A stretch of 64,000 nt of DNA from Octopus vulgaris (taxonomy: Eukaryota), in NCBI GenBank assembly GCA_951406725.2, contig OX597819.1:59706001-59770000 (forward strand), in the 5' to 3' direction. Of this stretch, positions 3,826 to 54,875 are shown piece by piece. Every line of letters begins with the position of its first letter. Position 1 is the first letter of the stretch. The translations under genes were made by a program, and so were the position numbers. Below the pieces are notes generated by a model that saw nothing but the letters and a program-made list of their open reading frames with translations, did not search any database and had not been told where the DNA came from.

Positions 3826-4454
3826 ATGTATGTGTGTGTGTGTGTATATATATATATACACACATATATATATATAAATTCACTGTTACATAAGACCATG
3901 TGGTGTTAGAATTTGTGTTTGCTAAATGTATTTCAGGAATGTCAATATATGCAGATGATAAATTTACTTATATTATTGTATATAATAAACTGACTGTGTG
4001 ATTCATATGGTAAGTGTTACAGTGAATGGCAGCAGTGGCACAAGACAGATAAGAATGTGTGTAATGGAATGTGACAGATAGAATTGAGTATAAATATTTT
4101 GGTATGACGGAAACACATGTTTAAATTCAAATTAGTTCAGAGCATGACTTGCAAAGCATCAGAACTGCGAGCATATTTGTGTGTGTGTGTGTGTGTGTGT
4201 ATCATCATCATCATTTAATATCTGTTTTCCATGGTAGCATGGGTTGGGTGATTTGACAAGAGCTGGCAAGCTGGAGCCAGTTGCCAGAAGTCTCAGTCCC
4301 TTGTCATCTCCTCTGTGAGGCTCAGCATCTGAAAATCCTTTCTTACCACTTCAAGCATCAGGCTCCAATTGTTGTTTTGGCAAGGTTTCTACGGCTCAAT
4401 GTCCTTCCTAACACCAACCACTTTACAGGGTGTACCGGATTTTTTTTTTTTAAT

Positions 4455-4760
4455 GTGGCATCAGCACAGGTGCTTTTTATGTGGGTCCAGCACAGGTGCT
4501 TTTTTATGTGGGTCCAGCATAGGTGCTTTTTTATGTGGGACCGGCATAGGGAATTTTTTTGTGTGATACCAGCACAAGTGCTTTTTATGTGGCACCATCA
4601 TGGGTGCTTTTTATGTGATACCAGCACAAATGGTTTTCATGTAGCACCAGCATACGTGATTTTCATGTGGCACTATCACAGGTGCTTTTTATGTGGTCCC
4701 AGCACAAGTGCTTTTCATGTGGCTCCAGTATAGGGGCTTTTTATGTGGCACCAGCAGCAG
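4455..4760. repeat. ~26 bp minisatellite (gtggcaccagcacaggtgctttttat), about 11-12 copies
   Basis: direct inspection; lies inside a minus-strand RTE-tail-type repeat that starts near 4200. Confidence 0.9.
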
Positions 4761-5258
4761 TGGGGAGTGGAACTAAAGTAAGTGACTGTGTGCTGGGCAA
4801 GAGGTTAGCGTATGATAGAGGATCAGTCTGAATGAGAGAGAAAGAAATATATGTTGTTGGAGATGTATTGAGACCTACCCTTCGGGAGCAATTGGGTGAA
4901 GAGTGCAAGTAATACAGAGGAGATAGAGGGGGATGTTCCATAAGAGTTGGCGGGATATGTTTAGAGATAGGGAAGACATGACTGTTTCAAGTGTGTCTTT
5001 GTACTTGTCCCCCACCACCACTTGTAAACCAGTGTTGATGTGTTTACATCCCTATAACTTAGTGGTTTGGCAAAAGAGACTGATAGAAAGGTACTAGTGT
5101 CAATTTCAGCTATAATTCTTCAAGTGGTGCCCAACATGGTTGTTGTCTAATGATTGAAACAAGTAAAAGATATAATATATATATATATATATGTGTTAGG
5201 CTGTAGCCTCCCTCATCCTTTTTACCTGTGCTCACTAACGTATTTAAAATAGCAACAT

Positions 5259-5561
5259 TTATGCTAAAAAACAGAATGCAATCCAATTTGTCAACATTGT
5301 CACCACTACTTGAATAGGTTCCACTGTAAGAGCACCAGTTGCCTGGAACTGCTCTTTAAGATATGATGTGTAGGCATCTGTCTTGTGACCCCTTGAACCA
5401 AGGCTCTGCAAGAGGCATTTCAAATGTTCAGCAACATCTTGATGGCAAATCATACAGCAATTCCAGTTTAGGTCTGTGTTCAGAGTCATGTTAGAAAGGT
5501 TGGAATGTTTTGAAAGTTTCAACCACTTACAGGAGGAATTTCTGTAAAACCTGAAAGACAA
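5259..5561 (-). mobile_element. Probable degraded DNA-transposon ORF fragment
   Basis: WNCCMICHQDVAEHLKCL resembles Cys-rich N-termini of invertebrate transposon proteins; family not assignable. Confidence 0.3.
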
Positions 5562-6191
5562 AAAATCTTCTACGTCTTTTGTTATCCTGGAGCAACTTGG
5601 AAACTCACAAATATTAATTCTATGCCATGTGTTCCTTCAAATACAACTCAAGTCAATTTGACTCATTTGTTGGAGTTGGGCATATATAGCACAAGGACAA
5701 GAAATGTAAATTTAGTCTTTTTAAGTAATATAAAAATAACTTCGGTATTCCGCATACAGTGAATCAGACTAAATACGTGTCTTGAATAGAAAGAATGCAA
5801 GTTCAAATTACTTGAAGCATGGTCTCTAATTTAATGTCTCGTTAACCAATCAGATTTTCTCATGACTCATATGGTTAGAGAACAGTGCTTAGCTTTTCGT
5901 AAGCCTTGGCCATCTTGAATTTTGGTGTTTTGCATACATATTTCTAAAATCTCCAGAGAATTCTTTGCCACTCGTTACTAGGCAAAATGTGAGGGAACCT
6001 CATAATAAATATAGTGCTTTTATTCACTAAATGGTTGTACTCTTTAAATACAGTTCTAAGCAACCTGATTAATAGTTCACTAAAGATTTTTCTCTTGTTC
6101 CAGAACAAGACATATCTGCTGGCCAGCTAACTTCTGTAATGGTGCATGACTTTTGTTTCTTGTCTCATAGAACAATATCAGATATTTCTGT

Positions 6192-6590
6192 AAGGTGGCA
6201 AGCTGGCAGAATCGTTAGCATGCTGGGCGAAATGCTTAGCAGTATTTCGTCAGCTGCTACGTTCTAAGTTCAAATTCTGCCGAGGTCGACTTTGCTTTTC
6301 ATCCTTTCAGGGTTGATTAAATAAGTACTAGTTACGCACTGGGGTCGATATAATCGACTTAATCCATTTGTCTGTCTTTGTTTGTCCCCTCTATGTTTAG
6401 CCCCTTGTGGGCAATAAAGAAATAGGTATTTCATCTGTCTTTACGTTCTGAGTTCAAATTCCACCAAGGTTGACTTTGCCTTTCACCCTTTCAGGATCAA
6501 TAAATTAAGTACCAGCTGCATACTGGGTCGCTCTAATTGACTAGCCCCCTCCCCGAAAATTTTGGGTCTTGTGCTTAGAGTAGAAAAGAA
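6192..6590 (+). mobile_element. Two tandem SINE family A copies (second one 5'-truncated)
   Basis: two successive gttcaaatt...gactttgc...aagtac bodies. Confidence 0.8.
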
Positions 6591-6635
6591 TATCAGATAT
6601 TTCCATATTGGATTGTTGTTTTTATCAACATCAGC

Positions 6636-6930
6636 AATATCAAAATCAAATCAAATGGAAATTGTAGTTGTGATCCCTGTGCCAGTGGCACATAAAAAGC
6701 ACCATCCGAACATGGCTGATGTCAGTGCCGCTTCGACTGGCATCCGTGCCAGTAGCACATAAAAGGCACCCACTACACTCTCAGAATGGTTGGTGTTAGG
6801 AAGGGCATCCAGCTGTAGAAGCACTTCCAGATCAGATTGGGGCTTGGTACAGCCCCCTGGCTTCCCAGACCCCAGTTGAACTGTCCAACCCATGCCAGCA
6901 TGGAAAACGGACGTTACACGATGATGATAG
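6636..6930 (+). mobile_element. Monomeric copy of the (AAATC)-headed, RTE-tailed element
   Basis: aaatcaaatc head, gtggcacataaaaagcaccatccgaac subunit, and the same 3' tail as 23450-23620. Confidence 0.75.
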
Positions 6931-7414
6931 GAATGGTCCATCATTGTTTCTTATCTTTAAAGCTATGGCCATCTTCTTGTTCTGGTGTGCCTTTGGTAAC
7001 CATCAGGACAATTCTTCTTATGAATAACAATGTAATTAGATTTGGTAACAATATACTTCATTGCAACGAAGCATTGTGCAGAAATTTTGGGGGCAGATGA
7101 TGATGATATGATATCTTTCACACTGGAATGGCACAATCAGCATTTTCTATCACAAGGTGTTGATTCAGAGGAATCCTTATCTCTTTTATTTAGTTGCTAT
7201 CTCTTATTCCTGAATAGTGAAAGCATATTTTAGGTGGAATTTAATGTATCTATCGCAAGTTCAGGGTAACTCTATCAAATTCTGGGATGTTAAAGCTATC
7301 ATTTACTTTACAATAATGGCTGATATGTTTTAAGAATTACACTTCTAGAAAGTGTAATGAATAATACTTCGGGTAAACAATAAGTGGTGGTGGTGGTGGT
7401 GGTGGTGGCAGTGG

Positions 7415-7452
<38 letters not shown>

Positions 7453-9528
7453 CCGAGACCAACTGATTGTTTTGCAGTTTTGCATTTGTTTTCCTAGTAA
7501 TCGTCCTAACCACAATAATCACTATATTAATTTAAGCCACTGTGTTTCTATTACATAAATTTTCAGTGTGTGTGTGCTTATATATATGTATGTATAAGGG
7601 CAGGGCATTAAAGAATACAAGATATTTTTATTTTTCAAAAGTGTATAATCTTTCATTGATTCAAATTTAAGCCTTTTTTTGTTCTTTTAATTAGGTTTAT
7701 ATAACTTGTTAACAATGCATGTATGATTTCTAGGAAGAAGGAAGAAAAAAAACACCCGCTTGCATCATTATTATGCTTGCAAACACAAGCATAAAATGCA
7801 TCCTTTGCAAGTGATCAGGCAATGCACTAAATAATTTTAAATTACATCATTCAACGAGGGCAGACAAAATTACATGGTGTAAACTGTTAATGTGAAAGGG
7901 TTAATTATGATTTATGACTCAAATGTGAAATATTCTGAAAACATTTCTGTGCATAGGCATTTTTTAAAAACCCTGCTCTTCTCTCTTCTTCTCAATTAAT
8001 TTATTCCATTATAACTTGATTCCAATTGATTTATCACCTGCTTTATTTACTTTTATATTTCATATTTTCCTCTTAGGCTGTCGTCACAGTGGTTAAGTAT
8101 TATGTAGTTATATTGAACATTGCTGCTAAGCAGTGCAGTTTTATGATTAAGAAAATACTTAAATAATACAGCTCATCTAACAAACTAGTTGAGTTACTTA
8201 AAAATATTATATTTTTATGTCAAATTATCTAATCAGATTCTGGATTAGATAATCCATGTTCAGTCATAGCTTGACTTTTATTTTGCATTTTATTTCTATT
8301 AGTAAAATGAAACTTGAAAATAATGATGAGATAGTAAAGCCCCCAGCCTTACTGAGTCTAATTCTGACATTCTGTTTTGTTTATAATGACTGTGTATAAA
8401 AAGACAATGTTTGCTCCCCAACCCCTAAAACTTTCTCTTTTAGATTTTACAAAAAGGATTGTGACTAGACAAATTTTTCCAATGATTTTTCTGAACAAGC
8501 TTTCAGAAGCTGAAAACAAACCAGTCACATACGGCATACAAAATTTTATACTGAAGTTGTAGGTTATAATTTGGTCTAGATTTGTTTTTCTTTTTCTTTT
8601 CTTTTCCTTTTTTTTTTTTTTTTGCAGTCTCCTTTTTCTATTTCTAAAATTTAACAAAAACTTTCCTCCTTTAATAATCATGATGCAGCTGATGAAAAGT
8701 AAACCCAGAAATATTAATATTTATGCATGAGGAGTTCTCTTTTCCCTGTTTCTTTCCACATCTCACTCTGACTCTATTAAAAGAAACATGTTTTAAAAAT
8801 TAAAAAAAACTTGAAATGGGTTAGAAGGAGACATGTAAATAGGTGTTTAGCATAAACCAATTTCTGCATCCCACCCTTCTTTCTATCACACAATGAAATA
8901 ATAATAATAAGAAGAAGAAGAAGAATATAATCTCTCCATTATGCAACCCTGTAATATAATTCTCAAGTTTCACACTTTCACCATTGGGAGGTCTCTAAAG
9001 AATAATGGTATCGTTTACTTTTAGGCATGGTGTTAGTATTTAGGTGAGATGGCATGGAGTGGGGGGGTCTTCTTCACAGTTTAGTGCAGGTTCTATTTGA
9101 ATTGTTGCAGGTTAGTAAATAAGAAGGAAAACAATAGGCTAGAAAACAGTAGTTCATCTGAGGAAATATTGTATGAATAGTTAACTGCTGAGTTTGAAGA
9201 GTCTAACAACAGATGCGGCGGTGGAGGGGGGAGACACCAAGTGCATCAGGTGGGTTGTGGTGGTGGGTTTCAGAGTTTACAATTCAGATGTGTTATGGCA
9301 GATAAAGCGATTGAGGTAAAATATTAATAGTCAAATGGGAGCTAACAATATTTAATGTAACGATTGACCCATCCTACACACCACTAATCAATTAAAATTA
9401 TACATTTATGTGCAGGCATAGCTGTTTGGTTATGTCTCCCTGTTCAGCACCTTGGGCATGTCTGCTATAGTCCTGGCTCAACTGATGCCTTGTCAATGAT
9501 TTTGGTTGACAGAAACTCTGAAAACCCA

Positions 9529-9947
9529 CACAATGGGCTTCTTTCAGTTTCCATCTACCAAGTTCAGTCACAAGACTTTGATTTACTAGAAGGTGCTGCA
9601 CAATGGTACTGAACCCGAGATCACATGGATGGAAAGCAAGCTTCTCGACTCTGTAGCCTGTATTTACATGAGTGTAAATATGGGTGTGGTGGGTGCAGAG
9701 TACACCATTGTTCAACACCCAATAAGGCAGCAAACTGGCAGAAACATTAGCACGCCGGGTGAAATGCTTTGTGGTATTTCATCTGCCGCTGTGTTCTGAG
9801 TTCAAATTCCGCCAAGGTCAACTTTGCCTTTCATCCTTTCGGGGTCGATAAATTAAGTACCAGTTACGCACTGGGGTCAATGTAATCAACTTAATCCGTT
9901 TGTCTCCTCTATGTTTAGCTCCTTGTGGGCAATAAAGAAATAAGAAC
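9529..9947 (+). mobile_element. Chimeric insertion: 190 bp locally copied segment plus SINE A, with 13 bp TSD
   Basis: ctctgaaaaccca at 9516-9528 and 9948-9960; 9526-9718 is near-identical to 11458-11650. Confidence 0.75.
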
Positions 9948-10432
9948 CTCTGAAAACCCATTGTGTGTGTGTTTATATATCATCACCATCATCATCGTTT
10001 AACATTCATTTTCCATGCTGGCAAAAGTTGGACATTTTACTAGGAGCTGTTTAGGCCAGGAGCTGCACCAGGCTCCATTGTCTGTTCCAGCCTGGTTTCC
10101 AAAGCTGGATGCCCTTCCTAATGCCAACCACTTTACAGAGCAGACTGGGTGTTTTTTACATGGCACCATCACTGACAGAGTCACCAAGTAACTCATCATA
10201 TTACTTCCCTCTCATTTGAGAGGGGAATAGTATTGATAGGGGGTATGGCTTTGTGCTAGTTGATAAGAGATTAAATGTCTAGAGAGACAGAGATAGGTGT
10301 CTTGCTGTAGAGTAGATACATAGATACCCCTGTTGGAAGGAAAAGGAGGGTGAGATATATATATATATATAGATATGTTGTATCGCTAAATTCACAAGTG
10401 CTTTTATTCTCTCTGTCTATTTTCTCTTATTC

Positions 10433-10468
10433 CTTTCTGTTGAAGAGCGTAGGCTCGAAACGTAAAAG
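10433..10468 (+). ncRNA. Minimal type-I hammerhead-like motif (variant core)
   Basis: cttt-CTGTTGA-a-GAGC gtag GCTC-GAAA-cg-TA-aaag: stem I, 4 bp stem II, palindromic ACGT stem III. Confidence 0.5.
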
Positions 10469-10598
10469 ACTGTCTCACTTTCCTGAGCATCAAACTAATA
10501 CACCTGTCTTCATCTTTTGTTTTCCTGTAAATTTCAACTATGTATGTATATATGTGTGTGTGTGTTTATGTCTGTATGTATGTATGTACACACACATA

Positions 10599-11041
10599 CA
10601 GGTCGTTGTCAACTTGTGACCACATTTGGTTCCGACTGACTGGTCGGGAGTTGATTTGGTCATAAGTTGGCCTATAGGCCTACTTAGCTTTGTTTTATAT
10701 TTTTACATTCTTAAGATACATTCTCGGGTAAAAGCCACACACAGCATTCTGTATTATACTATAACAGTGTTATTTGTTCATAGAAAAGTACCAAAGAATG
10801 CAAATACAATACACAATGTAGTGTAAGAAACAGTTGTGAAACTTACATAAAAATCTATTGTAGACTGGTGCTTGGCTGTGGACCTTCGCTGTTGTTTGTT
10901 AGCTGACGTCATCCGTAGATGAGTTCATTTCTAAGAGATTAAATCCATTAGAATACAACTGGACTATTTTTTATTATTGCTGCTGGGAGCTGGCATGTCA
11001 ATAATTGTAAAGTCAATTGGTTGTAAGTCGACGACAACCTG
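10599..11041. mobile_element. Tigger/pogo-like MITE
   Basis: TA-flanked imperfect ~24 bp TIRs caggtcgttgtcaacttgtgacca / tggttgtaagtcgacgacaacctg. Confidence 0.8.
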
Positions 11042-11093
11042 TATATATGTGTATATTTATATGTATATATGTGTATATTTATATATATATATA

Positions 11094-11127
<34 letters not shown>

Positions 11128-11795
11128 GTGTATGTGTTTGTCCCTACTCCATCTGCTTTACAACTGGTGTTGGTTTGCTTATGTCCCTGTAACTTAGTGG
11201 TTCAGCAAAAGTAACCAATAGAATAAAAAGCAGACTTACAAAATAAGAACTGGGGTTAATTTTGTTTGACTAAAGCCTGCAAGGCAAGCCCCTGCATGGT
11301 TCAGTCCAGTAATTAAAATAAGAAAAAGATAAAAGATGCATTGAAGAGGGAAGTCATTTGCTTTTATGATAATTTGTATTTAAAAAAAAAGGTTAGGGAG
11401 ACCACTCCAAAATTTAAATTGATTAAAAATTGATTGGAGTGGAGGCATACAGGGGAGCCACACAATGGGCTTCTTTCAGTTTCCATCTGCCAAGTCCAGT
11501 CATAAGACTTTGATTTACTAGAAGGCACTGCACAGTGGTACTGAACCGAAGACCACATGGATGGAAAGCAAGCTTCTCGACTCTGTAGCCTGCATTTACA
11601 TGAGTGTAAATATGGGTGTGGTGGGTGCAGAGTACACCATTGTTCAACACAGGCAATTTGTATGTGATCGCTCGACCTTTTAGAAACAGCAACTAAATCT
11701 TCCTCAAACCCCAATCTGCTGTCTTAACGGACACATTTAGATGTAGTCTGAGGTACCAGTAACAGAAAAGATGGTGGTAGCTGGAATGGTTTTAA

Positions 11796-11990
11796 CCCTT
11801 TAGCATTCAAATCACTCTGTGAGATCTAATGCTTATTTATTCACACTGTTTTGAATTAATCATGCCTTATCTTGTAGCTTCAAGATTTTAGTGATGTGGT
11901 TATTTATTTTTAAAATGACATTGTTGTGTGGGTGTAAGAGGCCAGATCTGGCTGGTTTGAAAGTAAAACAGGTACAGTATTTAGGTCTGC
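11796..11990 (-). mobile_element. piggyBac-like MITE, partial
   Basis: ttaa-ccctttagcattca end; reverse complement of the host element at 42328-43610. Confidence 0.65.
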
Positions 11991-11992
11991 TG

Positions 11993-12208
11993 AAGGTGGT
12001 GAGCTGGCAGAAATGTTAGCATGCTGGGTGAAATGCTTAGCAGTATTTCGTCTGTCTTTACGTTCTGAGCTCAAATTCCACTGAGGTCGAGTTTGCCTGT
12101 CATCCTTTTGGGGTCGATAAATTAAGTACCAGTTGTATACTGGCATCGATCTAATTGACTGGACCCCTCTCCCCAAATTTTGTGCCTTGTGCCTAAAGTA
12201 GAAAAGAA
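11993..12208 (+). mobile_element. SINE family A (short-tail form)
   Basis: family A body; tatttaggtct repeated on both sides (11978, 12209). Confidence 0.8.
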
Positions 12209-13558
12209 TATTTAGGTCTACTTGATGAAGGTTCTAAACAACTTGACATCACTTTTTACAAAATCAAGGGAGCTAAATCTGTTTGCCCTTGTGTATTCCT
12301 GAGAGGACCTTGGACAATGTTAAGGCCAGTAAAACTTGTCCAATCAATTTCAGAATACTATACACCAGAGTCACCATGTGACTTCTGCAGGGACTAAGAT
12401 ACTGATGACATGATCTTTGTTACAAGGCAGCTTCGGAAGAAACTCAGGCAACATTAACAGGGCTTTTGAAGCAATGAGATATTTCTTTTTGAGCAGTTTT
12501 TTTGTACTTTTAAAAGTTATTAATTTTCTCAGAGTTTATCTTAACAGTTTTTTATATATTTATATCTCTAGCTTGTGTAGAGATGATCAGTGATGATTTT
12601 ATTTTTATTTAACATCTGGTATGTGTTTTGAAAGATGGCCCCTTTTCATCTCTTTGAAAGTGTATGATGTAAATTCTATATTTTTGATTTGGTAAAGCAC
12701 CTTGTTTTGCAACTGTTTTTCCTCTATTCTTCTGAATGTTACATCAAAATTACTTCAGTTAAAAGAAGTTTGGTAGGGCAGTAGAATTACTTTGTCCCAG
12801 CATAGCAGCACATTAATGCTGCGTTCCTCGGCCCTTTAAAAGCTAGCAGAATACACATGACGACTTCCACCCAGAGTAACAACACACGCTTTTCAAGAGC
12901 AATTATTCAGTCACTGTCTAAAGGTTGGAACATTAGCACCTGGTTCCCTTTCGTCACTGCTTTGCTTTATCCCATCCAGATGTAGACACTAAACTGTCTA
13001 CAAGCTTGTGACTCATCTAGCTTGACACGCTATGGGATTCCTACCTCACCTCATTACCACTGCAAAACTCATTGGATATTTTAGATTTGCAACCAAGTAC
13101 CAGAGCTAACTACCTTGATGTGTATTAAGGAATTAACCTTTGTCTCCTACACCCTGCTTCCTTAAATGCATATCTCTGATGTGCCTACTACTTCATGTGT
13201 GATCAAGGAATAAATTATGTTTGCTAACCAAAAACATTGCCTTTTGATATGTATCGTTACCTTCATGTAAAACATACATTCATACATTCTTACATGTACA
13301 CAACTAAATATATTTTCTGAAGTGGTAAGCCTAACTCTTAATTTTCTTCTTGTTACAAAAATAAATTTCTGAGGGAGAAAACAAAAAGGAAAATTTTTAT
13401 TTTCATTTTATATAATATACAAGGGTTATTTTTATTTTGGCACAAGGCTTCAGTTTTAATAAATAGGCTTCTATGTCCATGAAAATTTATGTTTCATTGA
13501 TGAAGATACACATTTATTATTTTTTTCTACTAACTGGTTTAATGTTCTATTTTCATAG

Positions 13559-13619
13559 GGATACATCAGGACAAGGAAGGTTCTGTACCATATTTCGCTC
13601 TTACTCACGTGGTGCTCAG
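13559..13619 (+). CDS. Rab40: Rab40 internal coding exon (G3/switch II)
   Basis: cataG|...|gtaaat splice sites; 61 bp; encodes (W)[20 protein letters not shown], the Rab40-type switch II sequence. Confidence 0.97.
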
Positions 13620-15499
13620 GTAAATATTATTTGGCTTGCTAAATTGCTTTAACTTTTATGATGAAAAAGTAAATTTTAAAAAACTGATATTTCATATTTA
13701 GAAAAATTTTTCATTTCATTGAGAATTTCCAACAATTTTAGGAATGTTATAAGAAATATTTGGTAAAATTGAGGTTGAATTAGTCTAAGTAAAATCTTGC
13801 CAAATAAAACCAGCAGAGAACTAATTGTAAAGTATTTTAAACAAGGAAATTAAGAATATAAAGTAAACCAGAGAGAACCTTAGGGATAGTAGCCAAGGTC
13901 AAAGTACGGATTACTTATTTAGTTATGTAGTACGTAGTCTGGCATTTTATTTTAACCAAGTAACAAAGTAGAGGAAGTCATAGAGAAATTGAGACATCAT
14001 CATCACCACTCTTTAACATTCATTTTCCATGCTGGCATGGGTTGGAGGGTTTAACAGAAGCTGACAAACCAGAGAACTTTGCCAAGTTCCAGTGTTTGTT
14101 CTGGCATGGTGTCTGTAGCTGGATGCCCTTCCACAAAGTGTACTGGGAAATGGTTGGTGTTAGGAAAAGTATCCAGCTGTAGGCTGTAAATTTACATTAT
14201 ACAAAGTCATAAAATTACAGCGCTTATTTATCTGAGGGGTGGGGACGCAAAAGAACAAATAACAAAGACTTGCAGATGTTGACACAGAAAGCTGGTTTAG
14301 ATAATGGACGTGTAAAGTAGATTAGTTTTAGCAATATATGAAGAGTTTCAGGTGGATGTATGCTAGGGTTTCTTTTCTCAACTCCTTTTTACCTCAACCC
14401 TGAACCTCTAGTAAAGAACTCAGTATCTGAAGGTCAGCCCTGATCCAGCTGAGGTTTGATCAGAGCATTCCAGCTATGACCATCACATCTTTTTGTATAT
14501 TTGGAACTACATTATCCAGTCTATTGTTACTCTCTTTAAGGTGATATGGTTTGTTTTGAGGGAATTTGGGCTTTTATTTCTAGCAAACTGGGTGACTGAA
14601 CTAAGTACTAGTTAATGTTGTTTATATTTTCATTGGATAATGATGACTTAATTTGTATTTATATATTTTGTAAGCTTGGTTTAATACTGAACACAAAATA
14701 ATTTATTAGTCCAGCCTGTCAGACAATTTTATTTTGTTTTTCAATTAAATAAATAGGTCCTATTATGTTAGTCTATAAAAACACAGCAGCAGGGAGTTGC
14801 AAAACAGGCACACTGTATTGGGTTTACAATACAAAAACCCAATATAAATGTAGTTATATAATTTTCTCTCTCATCAAGCCAAGTGAAATTGTAGTCGTGG
14901 CTGGTGCTGGAGACACGTAAAAGGCACCCACTACACTCTTGGATTGGTTGGTAGAAACCAAACCAAATCAGACTGGAACCTGGTTCAGCTTTCTGGCATA
15001 CCAGTTCCAGTCAAACTGTCTAACGCATGCCGGCAAGGGAAGCGGATGCTAAATAATGACGATAACTTGATTAAAATAATGCCAGACTACAATAACTAAG
15101 TAAATCCTCGTCGGGGGTTTTTTCTTCTTTTTTTTTTTTTAACTTGATATTCTTAATTTCCGTGCTCAGAATATTTTACACTTGGTCTCTCTGTTGGTTT
15201 TATTTGGTTAGGTTTTACTTACAAATTTACAGTATAGATATAAAAACTTGATTAGGCAATCCTTCAGGGTTTGCTGTGAATGACAGAAAATAAAAATGAA
15301 AATCAATATGGGATTTTGGTTGCTGAAGCATCTTTCAAGATACTTTTGTAGGCAATCATTAGGGTGTCTGATAGAAAGCATCCTAGTATTTATTCCAATT
15401 CTCTGCAATCTGAGTTTGAATCTTGCCAGAGTCAACTGTTTCTTTTTTTTCTTTTCTTTTTTTTTTTTTTGCATTGACAAAAAAGTAGGCTCTTTTTTT

Positions 15500-16565: not shown

Positions 16566-16643
16566 GGAATACTGCTGGTGTATGACATCACAAACAGATG
16601 GTCATTTGATGGTATCAACCGATGGTTAAGAGAAGTGGATGAA
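16566..16643 (+). CDS. Rab40: Rab40 internal coding exon
   Basis: cacag|...|gtatgt; 78 bp, phase 0; encodes GILLVYDITNRWSFDGINRWLREVDE, in frame with the previous exon. Confidence 0.97.
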
Positions 16644-17387
16644 GTATGTTAACCTCTTTTGAATGATATTTTGTGTTTCCGTTACTTCTTTTTCAATTTT
16701 TAATTCAAATAACATTTAGAAGATGTACGAGTTTAATGAGTGACCTGATCTGAATTTGGGTGTTAAAATTCCAACAATTACATTATAGAAGAGTCGTGTT
16801 GGCTATTTTAGAACAGATTATATACTCATTTATTTATTTAATTAAGTTTACTTTGCAATAGTGTTATATACTGAAAAGGTGTATTTCTCAAATGTTTGAG
16901 TCCCACGTTCCACATTGATTTTCTGCAAAAGTAATTTTATCTAAATCTTTATTGCTAGCTTTATTCATTTTCCATGCACCACCTTTAGAAATACTAAAGA
17001 GTATCCGAATATTCATTATATATCTACAATCTGCTCGCTGACACAAATCCACAGCATAAATATTATAGTTTTGGTTTATATTTTGTTCCAGTATTGAGTT
17101 CAAATTCTGCTGAGATCTGCTCTGCCTTTCATCCTTTGGAGGCTAATAAAATAAGTACCTGTTGAAAACTAGGGTCAATGTAATCAACTTATCCTCTTCC
17201 CTGAACTTGTACCAAAATTTGAAACCAATATTTTGTTCAGGAATATCCAACCCCATTTATCCAACCCCATTGCATGATTTGAGCACTAAATTGTTGTTAG
17301 ACTTTAGAAAATATTCTCCTAAGTTTCATATCTATGTATAATTTGCAATCTACTAACTAGCTACTTGTGTGTGTATGTATGTATGTA

Positions 17388-17421
<34 letters not shown>

Positions 17422-17467
17422 GTCCTCTATTGCATTTTTGTTCCATTTATATATATATATATATATA

Positions 17468-17915
17468 AATACAAAATGGGACAAGAATGCAAAACATCCA
17501 GATAGACGATACAAAGAAAAAAAGGAAGGGTCATTCGGACTTTTCTTTCCTCAGTTAAGTTCCAGATTATCTTTGCAATTTCGGCTGTTATACTCAAGAT
17601 TGCTCCAATCTGGCTAGCCCCAAGGAAAAACTAAGCTAAGAGCATTAGATTCCTTGGGAGAAAGCAGCAAATGTATATGAAAACAAGGATGGGGAAAAAA
17701 ACGGAGAATGTTACACAAATACAAATAACAGGACATAACAACAGGTGTCTTTCAACTAAGAACAAATTAAATTAAGCTGGCATATGTGGAAGTAAAGCCT
17801 TACAGCAGAGATACAAGATTTCACTGCCACAGGGAGGAATATAGATGACAGCCGAACCAAGAAAGAATGGTCAGGCTTGGTCGAACACCGGTCACGTGGG
17901 GAGAAAAGAGAGAGA
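17468..17915. repeat. Unclassified interspersed repeat related to the 53153-53351 foldback
   Basis: shares the aaatgg.acaa.aatgcaa...acatc...gatagacgatacaaa terminus; sits in a (TA)n tract. Confidence 0.5.
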
Positions 17916-18783
17916 GGAGGGGGCTGTGTGGTTAAGAAGCTTGCTTTGCAGCTATGTGGTTTTGGATTCAGTCCCAATGCATGGCACCTTGGGCAAACTT
18001 TTTTCTTTATTTTTTTTTTCTTACTATAGCTTTGAGCCAACTAATGCCTTGTGAGTCAGTTTGGTGGGCAGAAAACTGAGAGGTTGCCTGTCATATACAC
18101 ATGTGTGTGTGTGTGTTTATGGCTTCGTAACTTAGCTGTTCACCAAGGGAGACTTATTAGTACCAGACTAAAAATAAGTAAATAAGTACTGGGGTCGATT
18201 TGTTTAACTGAAACCCTTCAAGGCAGTGCTCCAACATGTTTGCAGTCCAATGAATGAAACAAATAACAAAAAAGATGTGTATATCATCATCATCAGTTAA
18301 TGTCCATTGTCCATGCTGGCATGGGGTGGGTGGTTTGACTGGGCTGGCACACTGGAAAGTTGCACCAGACTCCAGTCTGATTTGACATGGCTTTCTATGG
18401 CTGGATGCCCTTCCTAATGCCAACCTAATGTTGAGAGTGTAATGGGTGCTTTTACGTGCCACTAGCATGACACCAGGGTGTGTTTACATGCCAATTTGTG
18501 TGACTGCAATTCTGCTCAGTTTGATGGGTCTTCTTCTCAAGCACAACATAATGCCAAAGGCCTTGGTTGTTGTTGCCTCTGTTTGAAAAGAACTCAGCCA
18601 CTTTGCCTCTACGAGCCCAACACTTGAAAGGAACTCAGCCAGTTTACCTCCATGAGGCCCAACATTCAAAAGATGTTCTTTATGTGCCACCAGCATGGAT
18701 GCACTTGGCTTGATAGATCCTCTCAAGCACAGCACATCGCCAAAGGTCTCAATCACCAGTCATTGCTTTTATGAGGCTCAGAG

Positions 18784-19260
18784 TTCAAAGATCATGCTTC
18801 ACCATCTTGTCCCATGTCTTCCTGGGTCTACCTCTACCATTGGTTTCCTCCACGTCCTCATACACATGCATCACATGACCATACCAGCACAGTTGTCTCT
18901 CTTGCACCACATCTGATTCCTCTTACGCCTAACTTTTCTCTCCAGATACTTTCACTCTGTCAAACGTGTACACTGACACTGCACATCCAGCGAAGCATAC
19001 TGGCTTCATTTCTTTCAAGTCTACATATGCCATCATCATCGTTTAACGTCCGCTTTCCATGCTGGCATGGGTTGGACGGTTCAACTGGGGTCTGGGAAGC
19101 CAGAAGGCTGCACCAGGCACAGTCTGATCTGGCAGTGTTTCTACAGTTGGATGCCCTTCCTAACGCCAACCACTCCGTGAGTGTAGTGGGTGCTTTTTAT
19201 GTGCCAGACGAGGCTGGCAAACGGCCACAATCGGATGGTGCTTTTTACATGCTACCAATA
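18784..19260 (-). mobile_element. RTE-type LINE 3' ORF remnant with nested tail repeat
   Basis: minus strand reads RLERNEASMLRWMCSV and RGRPRKTWDKMVK, typical of the RTE RT C-terminus. Confidence 0.7.
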
Positions 19261-20483
19261 TATATATATATATAATCAAGACTTCGTATAATCAAGACAT
19301 CGTAACTGTCCTAGTGTCCTTTGATGTAACATTTATGTGCATTTAGTTTATGTACATATTCATCCAAGGTAGACATTGCTATGCAGCTTTGATCAAGGTT
19401 TTACCCATTCAGGGTAAACATTTTATATATATATATATCATCATCATCATCATTTAACGTCTCTTGTCCATGCTGGCATGGGTTGGACAGTTTGACCAGG
19501 GCTGGTAAGCTGAGGGGCTGCACCAGAGTCCATTCTGATTGGCATGGTTTCTATGGCTGGATGCCCTTCCTAATGCCAGTTGCATGAGACCAGTATCTGC
19601 CATGACTATTTTTTTCACTTGGCTTGATGGTCTTCTACTCAAGCATGGCTTATTGCCAAAGTTCTCGGTCATTTGTTATTGCCTCCATAAGTTCCAACGC
19701 TTGAAAAGTGCTTTTTACATACCACCAGCACAGGTGCTAGTTAGACGACACCAGCATCGGCCACATTGCTTTTGTGAAGCCCAATGCTCAAAATGTGCTT
19801 TTTACTTGCCACCAGCACAGGTGCCAGTTATGTGACACCAGCATCAGCCATGACTACAATTTCACTTGGCCTGACGGGACTTCTCAGGCACAAAGTTCTT
19901 AGTCAATAGTCATTGTCTCCATGAGACCCAACATTCGAAGTTCATGCTACACTACCTCTTCTCGTGTCTTCCTGGGTCTACCCCTTTCACAGGTTCCCTC
20001 CGCAGCTAGTGTACGTACATGCATGGAGACATACATACAACCACACATGATGCGTTCACTTCCTCTCATTTCTTTCATTTGTTATCAATGCCAGATGTAC
20101 AGGCATAATCAGACAACAGACACTTTTAACAGAAAGTCTGTTTGACATCCCCGTTGCCAACAAGCTAGCTTCATTGTGTATCCTCAACACTGGGATAATG
20201 CAGTTAGAAAAAGCAATTTAATTGATGAATTAATACACTTTCTAAGCTTTAGTATCATATATTTTCATTTAAAACATGAAGGCAAAATGCATCTTCTTGT
20301 CTCTCCTTTCCACTCTCTTTCCAGACACACTCATGCATGTGTGTGTGTGTGTGAGTGTGTGTGAGAGAGAAAAAAAAACGAGTGAAAATATGTTCATACA
20401 GTCGTTATGAACATCTCTCCACTTTTGTTTATATTCACATGTACATACATACATGTATGTATCTATGTATGTATATGTGTGTG

Positions 20484-20518
<35 letters not shown>

Positions 20519-21549
20519 GACAGAGAGAGAGTGATACACACACACACACATTTATATATTTATACTCAGTGTTCTGGATATCAATGAAGAACATCAAAGG
20601 ATATTTTGCTTGATAATTAGATTTTTCTTCATGGATGCATTTTCCAAACTAAAAAATAGAGTACAGAATTCTAAGCATTGGTTATATGTTATGCCCTATA
20701 TTCCACTGTGTGTGTGTGTACACAGCATGGCTGTAGTCTAATGACTGAAACAAAGAAGCAAAAAAAAGATTGTATATATTAAAATTTTTAAGGCGTGGAA
20801 CAGGTTGGGATATAGGTTACATATGTTTCTCAACTTACTGAAGTTCATTACACATTGAACTCTCCTCAGCATAGGTGGTCATTGGGCCAAAGTTGCTACT
20901 GCCGCAAGATATAAACAAAGAGTCACCAGGCTAGGAATAGAAAAGGCCAAAACCAAAATGAAAAATAGCAAAAATCAAAATAAGTCATTTAAGTTAACCA
21001 GTGAACATTTCAGTGTGGGTCACCTGAAATAGGCATGTGGTGAGTAAATGGGTAAAGACCCCCCCCCCCTTTTGTCATGAATGACCATGGGATTGCACCA
21101 AGAAAGTTATCCTCCAAGGCAGAAGTCCAGGCAAGGTTGTTTATGTGAGGCCAACAATTGCCCATGCATACCAGTCTTCCCTCTCCATGCCATCAATGTT
21201 ACACAAGAGAAAAAGCAAAGGTCGATACGGCTTGGCACCAGTGACATTGCAACTCATTTCTACTGCTGAATGAACTGGAGCAATTTAAAATAAAATGTCT
21301 TGCTCAAGAACACAACACACAACCAGGTCTGGGAATCAAACTCATTACCTCATGATTGTGAGCCCAACACTCTAACCACTGAGCCATACACCTTCTCTCT
21401 TTCTCTCTCTCTCTCTCTCTCATCACATATATATATATATTCCTGCTTTTCTTAACATAAAACCAATGGTAGCCTTAATTCCCAAATAAAGAAATTATTT
21501 CCACCAATGTGGTGTTGAGCATTCATTTTCACCGTTCAACATTTATGAA

Positions 21550-21596
<47 letters not shown>

Positions 21597-21613
21597 ATAT
21601 ATTTATATATATA

Positions 21614-21856
21614 CCAGAGTAAGCACAGAAATGTGAAAGAAGGTGGGGAAAATAGTACTCGAATACCGGAGGTAGAGTAATAAGCTTTATTAATAAAGCT
21701 GCAAAAACACCATAAAAAAAGTGTTACTCAGAGTCTCGTGTTCCCTATTGTCAGACAGTTTTGGTTGAGAATCTCAACCAAAACTGTCCAACAAACAGGA
21801 ATGTGAAACTCTGAGTAACAGTTTTTTTGTGATGTTTTTGTAGCTTTATTAATAAA

Positions 21857-21857
<1 letters not shown>
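21614..21857. mobile_element. Foldback element of two inverted degenerate hammerhead motifs (Penelope-like terminus)
   Basis: inverted repeat 21685-21857 centred at 21771; each arm retains stem I / core / GAAA-like / CTCTGAG-TA; flanked by (TA)n. Confidence 0.7.
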
Positions 21858-21907
<50 letters not shown>

Positions 21908-21910
<3 letters not shown>

Positions 21911-23620
21911 CAAACACCATCCGATCGTGGCCGTTCGCCAGCCTCATCTAGCACCTGTGTCGGTGGCACATAAAAACACCATCCGAAGACCCGGCAAGAC
22001 TAGTCAGGCCATAACCCATGGCCCCTACCTGGGACGTAGTCAGTCCACCTGTGCATACCTTCCTTCTTGTGACACTTGTGAAGACCTGTTGAGGCAAGTG
22101 AAAATCAAAATCAAAACAAATCAAAATAGATGAACATCAATGGAATCTGTATCTTTGTGGTACCAGTGCCGGTGGCACACAAGAGAACCATCCGAACGTG
22201 GCCGTAGCCAGTTCCGCATCGACCGGCCTCCGTGCTGTGGGCACGTAACAAACACCATCCGATCATGGCCGTTCGCCAGCCTCATCTGGCACCTGTGTCG
22301 GTGGCACATAAAAACACCTTCGAAGACCCGGCAAGACTAGTCAGTCCACCTGTGCATACCTTCCTTCTTGTGACACTTGTGAAGACCTGTTGAGGCAAGT
22401 GAAAATCAAATCAAATCAAATCAAAATAGATGAACATCAATGGAATTTGTATCTTTGTGGTACCAGTGCCTGTGACACACAAGAAATCCATCCGAACGTG
22501 GCCGTAGTCAGTACCGCATCGACTGGCCATCGTGCTGTGGGCACATAACAAACACCATCCGATCGTGGCCGTTCGCCAGCCTCATCTAGCACCTGTGTCA
22601 GTGGCACATAAAAACACCATCCGAAGACCCGGCAAGACTAGTCAGGCCATATCCCATGGCCCCTACCTGGGACGTAGTCAGTCCACCTGTGCATACCTTC
22701 CTCCTTGTGATACTTGTGAAGGCCTGTTGAGGCAAGTGAAAATCAAAATGAAATCAAAACAAATCAAATCAAATCAAATCAAAACAAATCAAAATAGATG
22801 AACATTAATGGAATTGTATCTTTGTGGTACCAGTGCCGGTGGCACACAAGAAAACTATCCGAACGTGGCCGTAGCCAGTACCGCACCGACTGGCCTCCGT
22901 GCTGTGGGCACGTAACAAACACCATCCGATCGTGGCCGTTCGCCAGCCTCATCTGGCACCTGTGTCGGTGGCACATAAAAACACCATCCGAAGACCCGGC
23001 AAGACTAGTCAGGCCATAACCTGTGGCCCCTACCTGGGACGTAGTCAGTCCACCTGTGCATACCTTCCTTCTTGTGACACTTGTGAAGACCTGTTGAGGC
23101 AAGTGAAAATCAAAATCAAAACAAATCAAAATAGATGAACATCAATGGAATTTGTATCTTTGTGGTACCAGTGCCGGTGGCACGTGGCACACAAGAAAAC
23201 CATCCGAACGTGGCCGTAGCCAGTACCGCATCGACTGGCCTCCGTGCTGTGGGCACGTAACAAACACCATCCGATCGTGGCCGTTTGCCAGCCTCATCTG
23301 GCACCTGTGTCGGTGGCACATAAAAACACCATCCGAGCGTGGCCGTCTGCCAGCCTCATCTGGCACCTGTGTCGGTGGCACATAAAAAACACCATCCGAG
23401 CGTGGCCGTTTGCCAGCCTCGTCTGGCACCTGTGTCGGTGGCACATAAAATCACCCACTACACTCTCGGAGTGGTTGGCATTAGGAAGGGCATCCAGCTG
23501 TAGAAACACTGTCAGATCTGACTGGACTGGTGCAGCTTTCGGGCTCCCCAGACCCCAGTTGAACCGTCCAACCCATGCTAGCATGGAAAGCGGACGTTAA
23601 ATGATGATGATGATGATATA
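21908..23620 (+). repeat. GC-rich tandem array (~337 bp unit, about 4.5 copies) ending in an RTE-like 3' tail with (GAT)n
   Basis: tagatgaacat recurs at 22127, 22427, 22795, 23132; (AAATC)n junctions; three ~60 bp subunits near 23265-23450. Confidence 0.92.
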
Positions 23621-24519
23621 TATATATATATATCTCATCATCCTCGTTTAATGATGATGATTATGATTATGAGCCAGGCGTGACTTGAGAAGGAACAAAC
23701 AACAATATATATCATCATCATCGTTTAGCATGGAGAACGGGCGTTAAACGACGATGATAATGATATATATTGTTGTTTGTTCCTTCTCAAGTCACGGCTG
23801 GTTTCCCAGTTTTCTTGGTGAGTAGGTTCCCCACCTGGATTGGACGCTGGTCCGTCATAGGTGAGCTGCAAGATGCAGGAGGAAAGAGTGAGAGAAAGTT
23901 GTGGCGAAAGAGTCAGCAGAAGTTTTGGCATTACTTTCTGCCGGAGCTGCATGGAGCTTAGGTGTTTCGCTCATAAACACACACATTGCCTGGTCTGAGA
24001 TTCGAACCTGCGAGTCCGCTGCTCTAACCACTAGGCCATGTGCCTCCATGCATGCGTGCAGGCACACACACACACATGCGTGCATGCATGGCCGTGTGGT
24101 TAAAGAATTTCCTTGGTTTCAGATTTATTCTTGCTGTAGTATGATACCAGCTGTAGGTGTTTTCTAGTACAGTCTTGGTATCTTGGGGTGTCCACAGTTG
24201 TGCACAAGAGCAATTGATTAATGCAGATAAATTGCACTTGCGTACATTAACTAGTGATTAATCTTTAAAATTTCCAATTACATATGACATTTAACTGGTG
24301 TTTTTTGTTTTATTTTTTTCTAAACTGTCTTGAAATATTTTGTTTTTGGTTACATATTCAAACAAATGTATGAATCCTGTTTTGTTTGATCAGTACTTTG
24401 GCATGGAACTTTAGGACCTTGAGTTACTTATGTAGCTTCACAGTTAATAAATAAGGAAAAATATTTGAAGTACAAAATTGTCTCAAATATATAACCCACC
24501 TATTTTTTGTACAGTAATA

Positions 24520-24579
<60 letters not shown>

Positions 24580-24581
<2 letters not shown>

Positions 24582-24719
24582 AGGGATGACCACTAAGTGG
24601 ACATCCATTATGCTAGATGTAAACTTCATATGGTCTGACCACTAAGAAAAGATGGTTCTCAAGAAAATTCAGCAAACGCCAGAACATAAGCGGGCAGTCC
24701 ACTTAGTGGTCATCCCTCT
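24580..24719. mobile_element. 140 bp MITE in a (TA)n tract
   Basis: perfect 23 bp TIRs agagggatgaccactaagtggac / gtccacttagtggtcatccctct, TA-flanked. Confidence 0.85.
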
Positions 24720-25034
24720 TATATATATGTAATATAATTTTTCTGATTCTTCAGATTTTTTAGTATGCTGAAACAAGTAATAGATAAAAGATGCATATAT
24801 ATAAATTAAGATTTTTTTTCAGTTTCTGTAATACCAAATCCACTCACAAAGCTTTGGTTGGCCTTGGGCTTATAGAAGACCCTTGCCCAAGTTGCCACAC
24901 TGTGAGATTGGATTCAAAACCATGAAGAGAAAATTGCTTTAACAAACAGCCACACTTGTGCATAACACACACACACACACACACATTTATATATTTGGAT
25001 CATTACTAATTTCTAAAAAAATTTTTTTTTCCAG

Positions 25035-25257
25035 CATGCACCCGGTGTACCTAAAATTCTAATTGGAAACCGTCTACATTTAGCTTATAAACGTCAAGTT
25101 AGTGAAATTACTGCTGAATCATATGCTCTGAAGAACGATTTGGCCTTCTTTGAAGTTAGTCCTTTATGTGACTTCAACGTTCAAGAGTCATTAGCTGAAC
25201 TTTCACGACTTGCGCTAAAAAGAAATGGAATGAGCAGAACCTGGGGTCCAAATAAAG
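25035..25257 (+). CDS. Rab40: Rab40 internal coding exon (G4/G5 region)
   Basis: polypyrimidine-ccag|...G|gtataa; 223 bp; HAPGVPKILIGNRLHLAYKRQVSEITAESYALKNDLAFFEVSPLCDFNVQESLAELSRLALKRNGMSRTWGPNK; NRLH in place of NKxD is typical of Rab40. Confidence 0.97.
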
Positions 25258-45977: not shown

Positions 45978-47060
45978 TGATGATGATGATGATGATGATG
46001 ATATTATTGTATACAGTGCTTAGGTGCACTACAACTTGTCAAAAGTGCATATAAAGCATATGCAGTAATGTACAAATGTCTGGAAAGTGAACAGTGTATG
46101 AGTCAGATACATGCTTACATGTGTATGGAGGGGAGAAAATCAGGTGTAGTGTTGGCAAATCTCAGGAAGCATGGAAGTTTTGAAGGATGCAGTGCTCTGA
46201 CAACTAACAACTGATGCTGGCAGTTTGTTCCATACTTCAGCAACTCTTAGTGTAAAAAAATGTTTCCAAAAGTCATGGGAGCTGTGCTGTTTTCTTACTT
46301 TGTAAACATGTCCATGGGTGTTAAACAGGCAGAGTTTGAAAAGGTACTCAGAGTAATTGTTAGTAAAATGGTTAATAATTTTATGGGTGTCTGCCAAGTC
46401 AGCTGCCAGACGTCGGAGTTTCAATGTATCCATGCCCAGGGAAGTAAGGCATTCAGAATATGGCAAATGCCTGATGGAGGGTATTCTCTTGGTTGCACAT
46501 CGCTGAATGGTTTCCAGTCGATTAATATCCTGGGCAAGATAGGGGTTCCAGACCAGTGATGCAAATTCCAGGTGAGGCTGCACCATAGCTATATAAAGCC
46601 CCGGAGAGTGGCTCACAAAGGACTTGGTAAGTGATGTCAAGACACTCTCAGCCTTCTTGACAATTTTAGCAATGTGTTTTGTCCAACGCAAATAGCTGTC
46701 AACAATAATGACCAGGTCACGTTCACAAGAAGACTTTTTGAGATTAGTGTTGTGGAGGAAGTAAGTAGACGCTGGGTTTTTCCCCCCAAAATGCATGGTG
46801 GTACATTTGTCCACAGCCAGCTTAAGTTGCCAGTCCACGGCAGCATTGTGTCCAGGTCTGATTGCAATAGAGATCTATAGTGTACAGGATCTGACCTCTT
46901 TATTTCGAGGTACAGCTTGATGTCATCTGCATATTTCAGCACTGTGGCATTCTTTAAGTTGGCATCTATGTCATTAACATATGCAACAAATAAAAGGGGA
47001 CCAAAAACAGATCCCTGTGGTACACCAGATGTCATCTCATAGGGTGAAGAGTGCTGAACA
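45978..47060 (-). mobile_element. 5'-truncated CR1/L2-type LINE (RT C-terminal half, frameshifted)
   Basis: SGVPQGSVFGP, YADD, V.PHLEFAS.VWNPY, FF..RV...WN.LP motifs in overlapping ORFs 46637-47035 and 46140-46838; (CAT)n tail. Confidence 0.95.
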
Positions 47061-48042
47061 TTAAAACAATGATGGTGGTTGTGGTAATGCTGCTTCTCTA
47101 GCCAAGATGATCAGGATTTCATATTTTATTTGTTTTGGCTTGAAGAACATAAAAACATTTCCAATTCAGCCTACCTCCCCAAAATATTTACCAGCCTTTG
47201 CTGTAATATATAGGTTTTAAATATTCTAGCATTGCTATATAAATGTACATCCATTTCTACGAAAACAGTTTTCACTTAAACAAAAATAAATATATATATG
47301 TGTATAGTAAATGAGTTGAACAAATATATGATGAGAAAATTGACTGTACATTCTATTCCCGGTTAATCTAGAATGGATTTCAGACAGACTATGACCACTC
47401 AGTTCAACGGTTATTGACCTTTCATATTAACCCAATATTTTGTCTTGTTCTCGTGCTCTCAGAACACAATGACAATAGCAAGCTAGACGTCAAGGGACAT
47501 AACTGCGGCTGACTAATATAACAAAATATTCTTGGTTCTCAAGATCGGTTGGGATCAGGAGCTCTTGCTTGCTGACGACTTGGTTTTTTGGTGGTACCTG
47601 TAAAGAGTGTTGAGGCGGAAGTTCCAAACATGGAAGTCTAGTTAGGAGTTGAGGGGCCTAAAAGGGGAAATTAGCAGAAACAAGAGTTTGAGTAGAGGGG
47701 AAGGAAGAGAGGATCTTTATAGTATTAGGGGGTGTCAGTGGAAGTTCCTTGGAGTGTGAGCAGTGGAGGCTTTGTAGCTTTGAAGACATGCAGAATAAAA
47801 GATCCCTTATTTGAAATATAAGTGTATTTTAACAATAGAAAGGATTTCCAGCAGTAAAATAATGCCTCAATTAGATATTTGTCTAACCTATGCTAGCAGA
47901 GAAAAGTAGACATAAATTTCACACACACGCACAACAGAATTTAATATAGATCAAACTAACATATAATGAGATATAACTTCAAGTTTCAGATCAGGCCAAT
48001 CTTTCCACACTCATTAGATGAACGTGTTATATATATATATAT

Positions 48043-54480: not shown

Positions 54481-54589
54481 CATATATGTATATATATATA
54501 AATAGATGTGTGTATCTTTCCCTTGTTAACAATTAACATGAAAAATTTAACATACTCGGCCACATGATATATAGCCATCTATGTATTAT

Positions 54590-54875
54590 CAGGCCGAAAA
54601 TGTCGCTAGAAGCTAAGATCACCAAGCATAGATTGGCATATTTCGGTCATATTATGCGGAGAAAATCCCTGGAGAAGGACATCATTTTCAGAATGGTCAG
54701 TGGCAAGAGAAGAAGAGGCCGACCAAGAACCTGCTGGCTTGACACCATCAAGAGTGATACCGGAATGGACATAGACAATCTGAAAGAAGCGGCCCAGGAT
54801 AGAACTGACTGGAGGACACTGATCCAACGAGTAACCGAGAGTCGACTTTGACTGAGTGGATAGATAGATAGATAG
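54590..54875 (+). mobile_element. RTE/BovB-like LINE 3' fragment with TSD
   Basis: SLEAKITKHRLAYFGHIMRR..SLEKDI...GKRRRGRPR..WLD...AAQDR..WR; (GATA)n tail; TSD atgtattat at 54581-54589 and 54876-54884. Confidence 0.9.

Follow-up and report, generated by a model that had tools for sequence, protein, structure and literature searches.

An 8391-bp intron of a Rab40 gene of Octopus vulgaris holds a long palindrome, and the question that it raises is what kind of element left it there and whether the ribozyme-like sequences in its two arms are, or once were, capable of cleavage. The stretch analyzed (here called the window) comprises 64,000 nucleotides of contig OX597819.1, positions 59,706,001 to 59,770,000 of the forward strand, and coordinates are given within it. 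An earlier reading made from the letters alone (the sequence-only reading) had described the palindrome as a pair of inverted, inactive hammerhead ribozymes, possibly related to Penelope-like elements and existing as a small element of its own.

Results

The palindrome lies within a longer and asymmetric insertion in a Rab40 intron

Exons with Rab motifs were found on the + strand at 13559-13619, 16566-16643 and 25035-25257 and from 28862, and the Pfam matches for the gene were Ras and SOCS box. The intron of interest (16644-25034, + strand, GT..AG) is preceded by a coding exon at 16566-16643 (+ strand; Ras PF00071, E 9e-05) and followed by one at 25035-25257 (+ strand; Pfam Ras), the closest named proteins of which are Rab-40 of Argopecten (89%) and of Solemya and Capitella (88%). 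A structure search with the Rab exon returned distant Rabs only. The intron borders, the Ras and SOCS box domains and the Rab-40 relatives agree with the earlier placement in a Rab40 intron, and these relatives point to a lophotrochozoan host, most likely a mollusc.

The palindrome has two reverse-complementary arms of 86 positions each, 21685-21770 and 21772-21857, which differ at 13 positions (about 84-85% alike) and are separated by the single base 21771. The + strand from 21680 to 21862 folds at -103.4 kcal/mol with a z score of -20.8, and 0 of 200 shuffled sequences were equally stable. Arms, fold energy and shuffle test all support the original description of a 173-bp palindrome with a 1-nt loop, and the letters quoted for both arms match the sequence. 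Public contigs from 4 of 24 runs (X2, X11, X8 and X7, one per organism label) were placed on 21614-21859 at 80% likeness, and numbered 3226, 2909, 3385 and 1477, respectively. Every one of the 28 depth bins of this interval was covered in all four runs. An assembly fold-back artifact was rejected, as the arms are only about 85% alike and an X2 contig bridges the center, covering 21669-21801 with 2 letters changed; we take the center as real because of that contig.

The insertion does not start with the palindrome at 21685. The 71 bases that precede it are part of the same family of repeats, and the full insertion is therefore 21614-21857. It has (TA)n on both sides, as had been noted: a left tract at 21549-21613 (AT, 32.5 repeats), which is the likely insertion target, and a right tract at 21860-21909 (TA, 25 repeats). 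Directly after the right tract lies a tandem array (21907-23450) of 300- to 367-bp, GC-richer units with 63-bp subunits, in which a descriptor scan found no hammerhead frame.

The long arm (21614-21771, 158 bp, element sense on the - strand) is a 5′-truncated end of the repeat family, and includes a one-sided 71-bp tail (21614-21684, - strand) that only this arm possesses, the arm-to-arm match stopping at 21685. Contig depth peaks at 21659-21685, within or at the edge of the tail, and loose contig ends of run X7 behind 21857 continue like the tail. Loose ends before 21772 finish in the minus-strand letter of 21771, and this base, the presumed loop, likely belongs to the long arm. The short arm (21772-21857, + strand, 86 bp) is an inverted, 5′-truncated copy without the tail. 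A perfect 14-bp AT-rich palindrome is present in both arms (21685-21698 and 21844-21857), and the short arm ends exactly there; the palindrome may mark a second reverse transcriptase (RT) start or a target annealing point.

No open reading frame was found in the arms, and a sequence comparison detected no second copy of the insertion in the 64-kb window. The AT-rich palindrome at the tail junction also matches 21 bp at 61292-61312 (E 0.013), probably by chance. Other repeats in the window are a broken LINE-type RT fragment at 46140-47110 (- strand; RVT_1, E 8e-10), the 3′ part of which has a second copy at 56195-56692, and a minisatellite at 4448-4756 with 11.7 copies of 26-bp units. An open frame at 54537-54851 (+ strand) had no Pfam match and presumably resembles the C-terminal end of an RTE-type LINE protein.

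Both arms carry a decayed hammerhead frame

The right arm contains a hammerhead remnant at 21780-21825 (+ strand) in which all 14 helix pairs are standard. An 8-bp stem I (21780-21787 with 21818-21825) encloses, in order, the core (21788-21794), which locally reads CCAACAA, a 3-bp stem II with a GGAA loop (21795-21804, with 21795-21797 paired to 21802-21804), a GAAA box (21805-21808) and a palindromic helix III of 9 nt with one central mismatch (21808-21816). N17 is the A at 21817, and the cut is predicted right after it. The left remnant (21717-21762, - strand) has a CUGACAA core, GAGA for GAAA and 3 of 14 helix pairs broken. The G12 A13 A14 A15.1 box is present at 21805-21808, and the left GAGA reverts to GAAA in the family. 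Moreover, the A15.1-U16.1 pair and H17 are found in both arms (A 21808, T 21816 and A 21817 in right-arm numbering), and helix I closes the core as in type I hammerheads, with 8 of 8 pairs in the right arm, 7 of which have a pairing probability of 0.84 to 0.95.

In predicted folding, neither arm alone formed the full hammerhead fold. The minimum-energy homodimer of the unchanged right arm contained both 8-bp stems I and an intermolecular helix III of 4+4 bp and left N17 unpaired, and stem II was not formed. On the transcribed strand (21614-21859), stem I had a probability of 0.000 against arm-to-arm pairing. The hairpin predicted for the Rab40 pre-mRNA (21685-21857, + strand) would lock the sense copy in 86 bp of duplex, and no ribozyme function is expected at the locus. 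Local breakage affects G5 and G8 in the right arm and G8, A14 and two helices in the left arm; with core or helix positions broken in each arm, the earlier judgment that both visible copies look inactive holds. We conclude that the insertion is dead and that its only likely effect is intronic double-stranded RNA.

A very stable intronic hairpin on the transcribed strand might alternatively have been kept by the host for Rab40 expression, as a microRNA precursor or as a guide for A-to-I editing; in frog, palindromic repeats undergo heavy editing, and the "LINE" that is massively edited in lizard is Penelope (PMC5625713). The differences between the arms, however, resemble neutral decay, 9 of the 13 falling within the CpG-rich segment 21789-21807, and Rfam microRNA matches were all below their cut-offs. 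We consider a host function to be extremely improbable.

The chance rate of the frame was estimated in 30 Mb of second-order simulated sequence, searched on both strands with position 4 free, a 3-bp stem II, GAAA and UH. There were 4 matches with a stem I of at least 4 bp, 2 with at least 5 bp and 0 with at least 6 bp or with a 3-bp palindromic half, and the chance rate of the frame is thus below 1 in 30 Mb. Neither arm passes the strictest descriptor, which had 0 matches in the 64-kb window, and the majority letters of the family, read by hand and unphased, would meet that setting. A relaxed descriptor matched only the right arm in the window and nothing in 60 simulated windows, but it was shaped after the target had been seen and carries little weight. 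The Rfam search that the sequence-only reading had proposed as a check did not bear out a hammerhead: there were 0 matches at the gathering threshold in the window, no hammerhead was among the 34 matches at E values up to 10, and the best match was the hairpin family MIR1120 (40.8 bits versus a cut-off of 86).

The majority core of the family is CCGACGA

Among right-arm contigs, per-position and unphased counts in all four runs favored G at three places, 21790 (72-77%), 21793 (80-85%) and 21797 (67-72%), and C at 21802 (73-82%). Each of these letters undoes CpG decay, and together they restore G5, G8 and the 3-bp stem II. The left-arm majority letters restore GAAA (76-85% of depth) and mend the stem I pair that is broken locally (50-81%). 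At position 4 (21789), C is retained. In run X2, C>T reaches 8% or more at five places, all of them listed and none of them 21789; in X11, X8 and X7, C>T at 21789 is absent among the variants listed, with two C>T places in each run outside that list and a minor T share possible. One contig string reads C-C-G-A-C after stem I. In the left arm, C at position 4 makes up 17-35% of depth in a contig subset that is about 2% as deep as that of the right arm and was selected for likeness to the left arm, and the T found locally is best explained by CpG decay.

The C-T-G of one arm and the C-C-A of the other can be read as a single CpG that decayed in either direction, and the majority core is therefore CCGACGA, which fits 6 of the 7 positions of the C3 U4 G5 A6 N7 G8 A9 box and departs from it at U4C. 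By merging the arms, the sequence-only reading had arrived at CUGACGA, and this the family contradicts, with no C>T at 21789 among the variants listed. It had also held that a consensus without CUGANGA would count against a hammerhead; taken literally, CUGANGA is lacking, although U4C is a known natural variant. What stands of the proposed minimal type I hammerhead is the frame in each arm, namely the 8-bp stem I, GAAA, the palindromic helix III and UA, but not the CUGACGA core. Stem II closes with A-U straight after A9, a call made with 21804 T>C absent among the variants listed, and the unpaired base and G10.1-C11.1 pair of the Penelope consensus are absent. No compensatory helix changes were among the variants listed, and one listed variant, T>C at 21822 (14-32%), disrupts a pair of stem I without a listed change at the partner position. 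Subfamilies more than 20% diverged from the local copy fall outside a contig set gathered at 80% likeness, and a canonical-core sister family may therefore exist alongside this one.

Departures of this kind have precedents. A natural U4C hammerhead in a viroid has lowered activity in vitro and still permits infection, and departures at 10.1-11.1 also occur naturally (PMC3088659, Perreault et al. 2011). A virome survey uses CYGANGA and sees C or T at core position 4 (PMC13481778). The insertion might nevertheless derive from an ordinary SINE or LINE family whose 3′ end was inverted by twin priming, with a motif that is a relic or structural (for example, an RT-binding stem) and never cut. Neither U4C nor A10.1-U11.1 matches the conserved core, the former "considerably decreases activity in vitro" (PMC3088659), and an anole Penelope-like element inserts in vitro without hammerhead cleavage (PMC11167929). 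Yet the remaining core positions and three helices stand in exact register, and both the (TA)n target and the tail on one side recall Penelope-like elements (PMC8557442), which leaves a SINE or LINE origin very unlikely.

Family copies are abundant and extend beyond the palindrome

Dividing summed depth by single-contig depth gave about 7,000-14,000 for the tail and 4,000-8,000 for the hammerhead, values that give an order of magnitude only and not a copy number. Depth nevertheless indicates that the family is high-copy, with roughly 10^4 copies. The variant spectrum was nearly identical in all four runs, suggesting an expansion of the family that predates the split of the four organisms. Pattern scans for further copies found none in viral contigs and none in prokaryote genomes, and two metagenome matches were dismissed as chance, their flanks being unrelated.

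At 21772, 28 to 43 contigs per run continue 5′ into nonpalindromic sequence, and more do so at 21779 and 21782. The second 5′ form of the family, which departs at 21782 (39 to 79 contigs per run), carries a pyrimidine tract and CAG roughly 10 nt upstream of stem I. The tract and CAG resemble a 3′ splice site, but agreement is only about 0.5, and the same letters form a short palindrome too. Helix I marks the end of an intron in the Penelope element of Drosophila virilis (PMC4209133). Depth at the center of the palindrome was 0.16-0.26% of that at the hammerhead, an underestimate because assembly graphs break at palindromes.

Of 168 joints, 15 were listed. Eight of these were opposite-strand joints, as expected from plain linear copies on a palindromic reference, and seven were same-strand joints that run from the tail side (antisense) to the hammerhead side (sense) at differing points (for example, 21680 to 21801, 21705 to 21774, 21709 to 21798 and 21717 to 21794). 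One further joint was a fold-back centered on the helix III palindrome. Each joint is represented by 1 or 2 contigs per run, at a likeness prone to repeat-made joints, and the joints are suggestive of head-to-head junctions at varying points in other family copies. The palindrome itself is not the repeated unit, as copies run on in the 5′ direction and junction points vary, and the earlier notion of a small element existing alone is not supported.

The same observations bear on a MITE or foldback DNA element inserted at TA, with a hammerhead likeness due to chance. A near-perfect palindrome between TA runs, with a hairpin family (MIR1120) as its best Rfam match, is what such an element would offer. 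The insertion is asymmetric by 71 bp, however, contigs leave it at 21772 for nonpalindromic sequence, its center is shallow even if underestimated, its junction points vary, and the frame is too rare by chance. A MITE with symmetric terminal inverted repeats and fixed ends was rejected on the 71-bp asymmetry and the variable centers, and we regard MITE or foldback origin in general as highly improbable.

The insertion is probably a head-to-head pair of Penelope-like ends

Penelope-like insertions often show an inverted 5′-truncated copy, a tail at one end and microsatellite targets (PMC8557442). An inverted 5′-truncated copy with a variable junction fits both the locus and the seven same-strand joints among the 15 of 168 listed. 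The one-end tail also fits, although its 71 bp exceed the published 30-40 bp, as does the microsatellite or AT-rich target, with (TA)n on both sides at this one locus. The family could not be linked to any RT or endonuclease gene; the arms are without an open frame, and family motifs are absent from the consensus file for Naiad, Chlamys and Hydra. The Penelope-like, often inverted context proposed earlier is supported by the head-to-head truncated copies, the one-sided tail and the (TA)n.

A fragment of a non-LTR retrozyme is another candidate, namely short head-to-tail hammerhead repeats that spread by way of circular RNA, with a Penelope enzyme acting in trans. Such retrozymes originated from the pseudo-LTRs of Penelope elements, and many of the solo monomers that they leave behind lie in introns (bioRxiv 10.64898/2026.07.22.740005), and the type I frame, palindromic helix III, high copy number and absence of coding sequence in the arms are shared. 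The locus, on the other hand, has no head-to-tail units, no joint that goes back was among the 15 of 168 listed, and the arrangement is head to head with a tail, such that a retrozyme seems unlikely. We conclude that a high-copy, likely Penelope-like family probably left two truncated ends here, joined head to head in (TA)n and now dead, each with a decayed hammerhead of predicted U4C, dimer type.

How such a pair might arise is suggested by related elements. Palindromes at head-to-head Penelope-like junctions have been read as self-priming (PMC3846280). For an anole Penelope-like element in vitro, both target strands are cut and extended, RT starts at two internal sites that bound the tail, and the hammerhead cuts only with protein, its cleavage being dispensable for insertion (PMC11167929). 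In the octopus insertion, the distance from the predicted cut site to the end of the arm is 111 nt for the long arm and 40 nt for the short one. By analogy, an element-encoded RT/GIY-YIG protein would nick an AT-rich target, and copying of the element RNA would begin at two points, at these same distances downstream of the cut. Both cDNAs would stop just 5′ of stem I and be joined head to head, through priming from both target strands or through fold-back self-priming, which would yield a long arm with the tail and a short arm without it. In the active element, the motif would have dimerized with a second copy through the 21808-21816 palindrome and cut weakly after UA, probably with help from protein. 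CpG decay would later have broken G5 and G8 on the right and G8, A14 and two helices on the left.

Discussion

Minimal type I hammerheads occur by the thousands in animal genomes, mostly solo, and a U3-A8 variant is known; some form opposite-strand pairs 100-700 bp apart, and both single and paired copies come from truncated elements (PMC4209133). The supplement of that study gives the Penelope minimal hammerhead consensus as CUGANGA, an unpaired base and G10.1-C11.1. The octopus family resembles the Penelope pseudo-LTR hammerheads described there (Cervera and de la Pena 2014) in its type I topology, GAAA, dimer-suited palindromic helix III and UH, and also in its AU-rich flanks, its thousands of mostly solo copies and its close opposite-strand pairs. 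It differs in having the core CCGACGA rather than CUGANGA, a 3-bp stem II closed by A-U rather than one closed by G-C after an unpaired base and often 6-8 bp long, a stem I of 8 bp rather than 4-5 bp, and no linked RT gene. Because CUGANGA and G10.1-C11.1 both fail, the family is not filed as a canonical member; on predicted structure, it is a variant that would work like canonical minimal hammerheads. With the viroid hammerhead it shares C at core position 4 (PMC3088659), but U4C is a rare variant of an RNA pathogen there and the majority state of a high-copy animal repeat under four organism labels here.

As an insertion, the locus is like those of endonuclease-bearing Penelope-like elements (PMC3846280, PMC8557442 and PMC11167929) in its head-to-head 5′-truncated copies, junction palindrome, one-end extension and AT-rich or (TA)n target. 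Unlike the published insertions, it retains only the last 86-158 bp per side, with a tail of 71 bp instead of 30-40 bp. Octopus Naiad (Naiad_Obim and Naiad_Ovul; PMC8557442 file S1) likewise has a (TA)n target and inverted truncated copies, and CUGANGA searches reported with it found no canonical hammerhead. Six family motifs of 9-13 letters had 0 occurrences in the Naiad supplement, where line breaks can hide a motif, and the 3′ end displayed for Naiad_Obim differs from the 71-bp tail; an origin as the end of a published octopus Naiad is accordingly unsupported. Ten core-like words with C at position 4 were found in that supplement, none of them within such a hammerhead frame in the displayed text. 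Animal non-LTR retrozymes (PMC7229834; bioRxiv 10.64898/2026.07.22.740005) are also noncoding, Penelope-related and of type I, but consist of head-to-tail tandem units and not of head-to-head copies with a tail.

Penelope-like hammerheads have been found almost entirely with CUGANGA descriptors (PMC4209133; PMC8557442 methods). A family with a CCGACGA majority would score as free of ribozymes in CUGANGA searches and in Rfam, and counts of "hammerhead-less" families may thus be too high. For octopus genomes, many Penelope-like families are described, and the available text of two reports makes no mention of ribozymes (PMC13282606; PMC8967140). Within the literature searched, which was mostly open access, no animal repeat family was described in which a U4C hammerhead is the majority form, though Repbase or the survey of Lunse et al., the largest of Penelope-linked hammerhead variants and summarized in a review (PMC6765202), may record it.

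As a dead insertion, the single locus matters little in itself. The family offers a natural test of the minimum catalytic power that such elements need, and given where the arms end, 40 and 111 nt beyond the predicted cut, RT would be expected to start at two mappable points. A more far-reaching and doubtful possibility is that a Penelope-like family of some ten thousand copies spread with a fixed, working but throttled hammerhead, with U4C and A10.1-U11.1, that CUGANGA searches do not see, and that its stubs provide abundant double-stranded RNA within introns on which A-to-I editing can act. Hyper-editing is strongest in octopus (PMC5625713). If this possibility were true, CpG deamination at the C of position 4 would turn single dead copies back to canonical CUGA, and head-to-head stubs would supply ready-made intronic double-stranded RNA in a heavily editing lineage.
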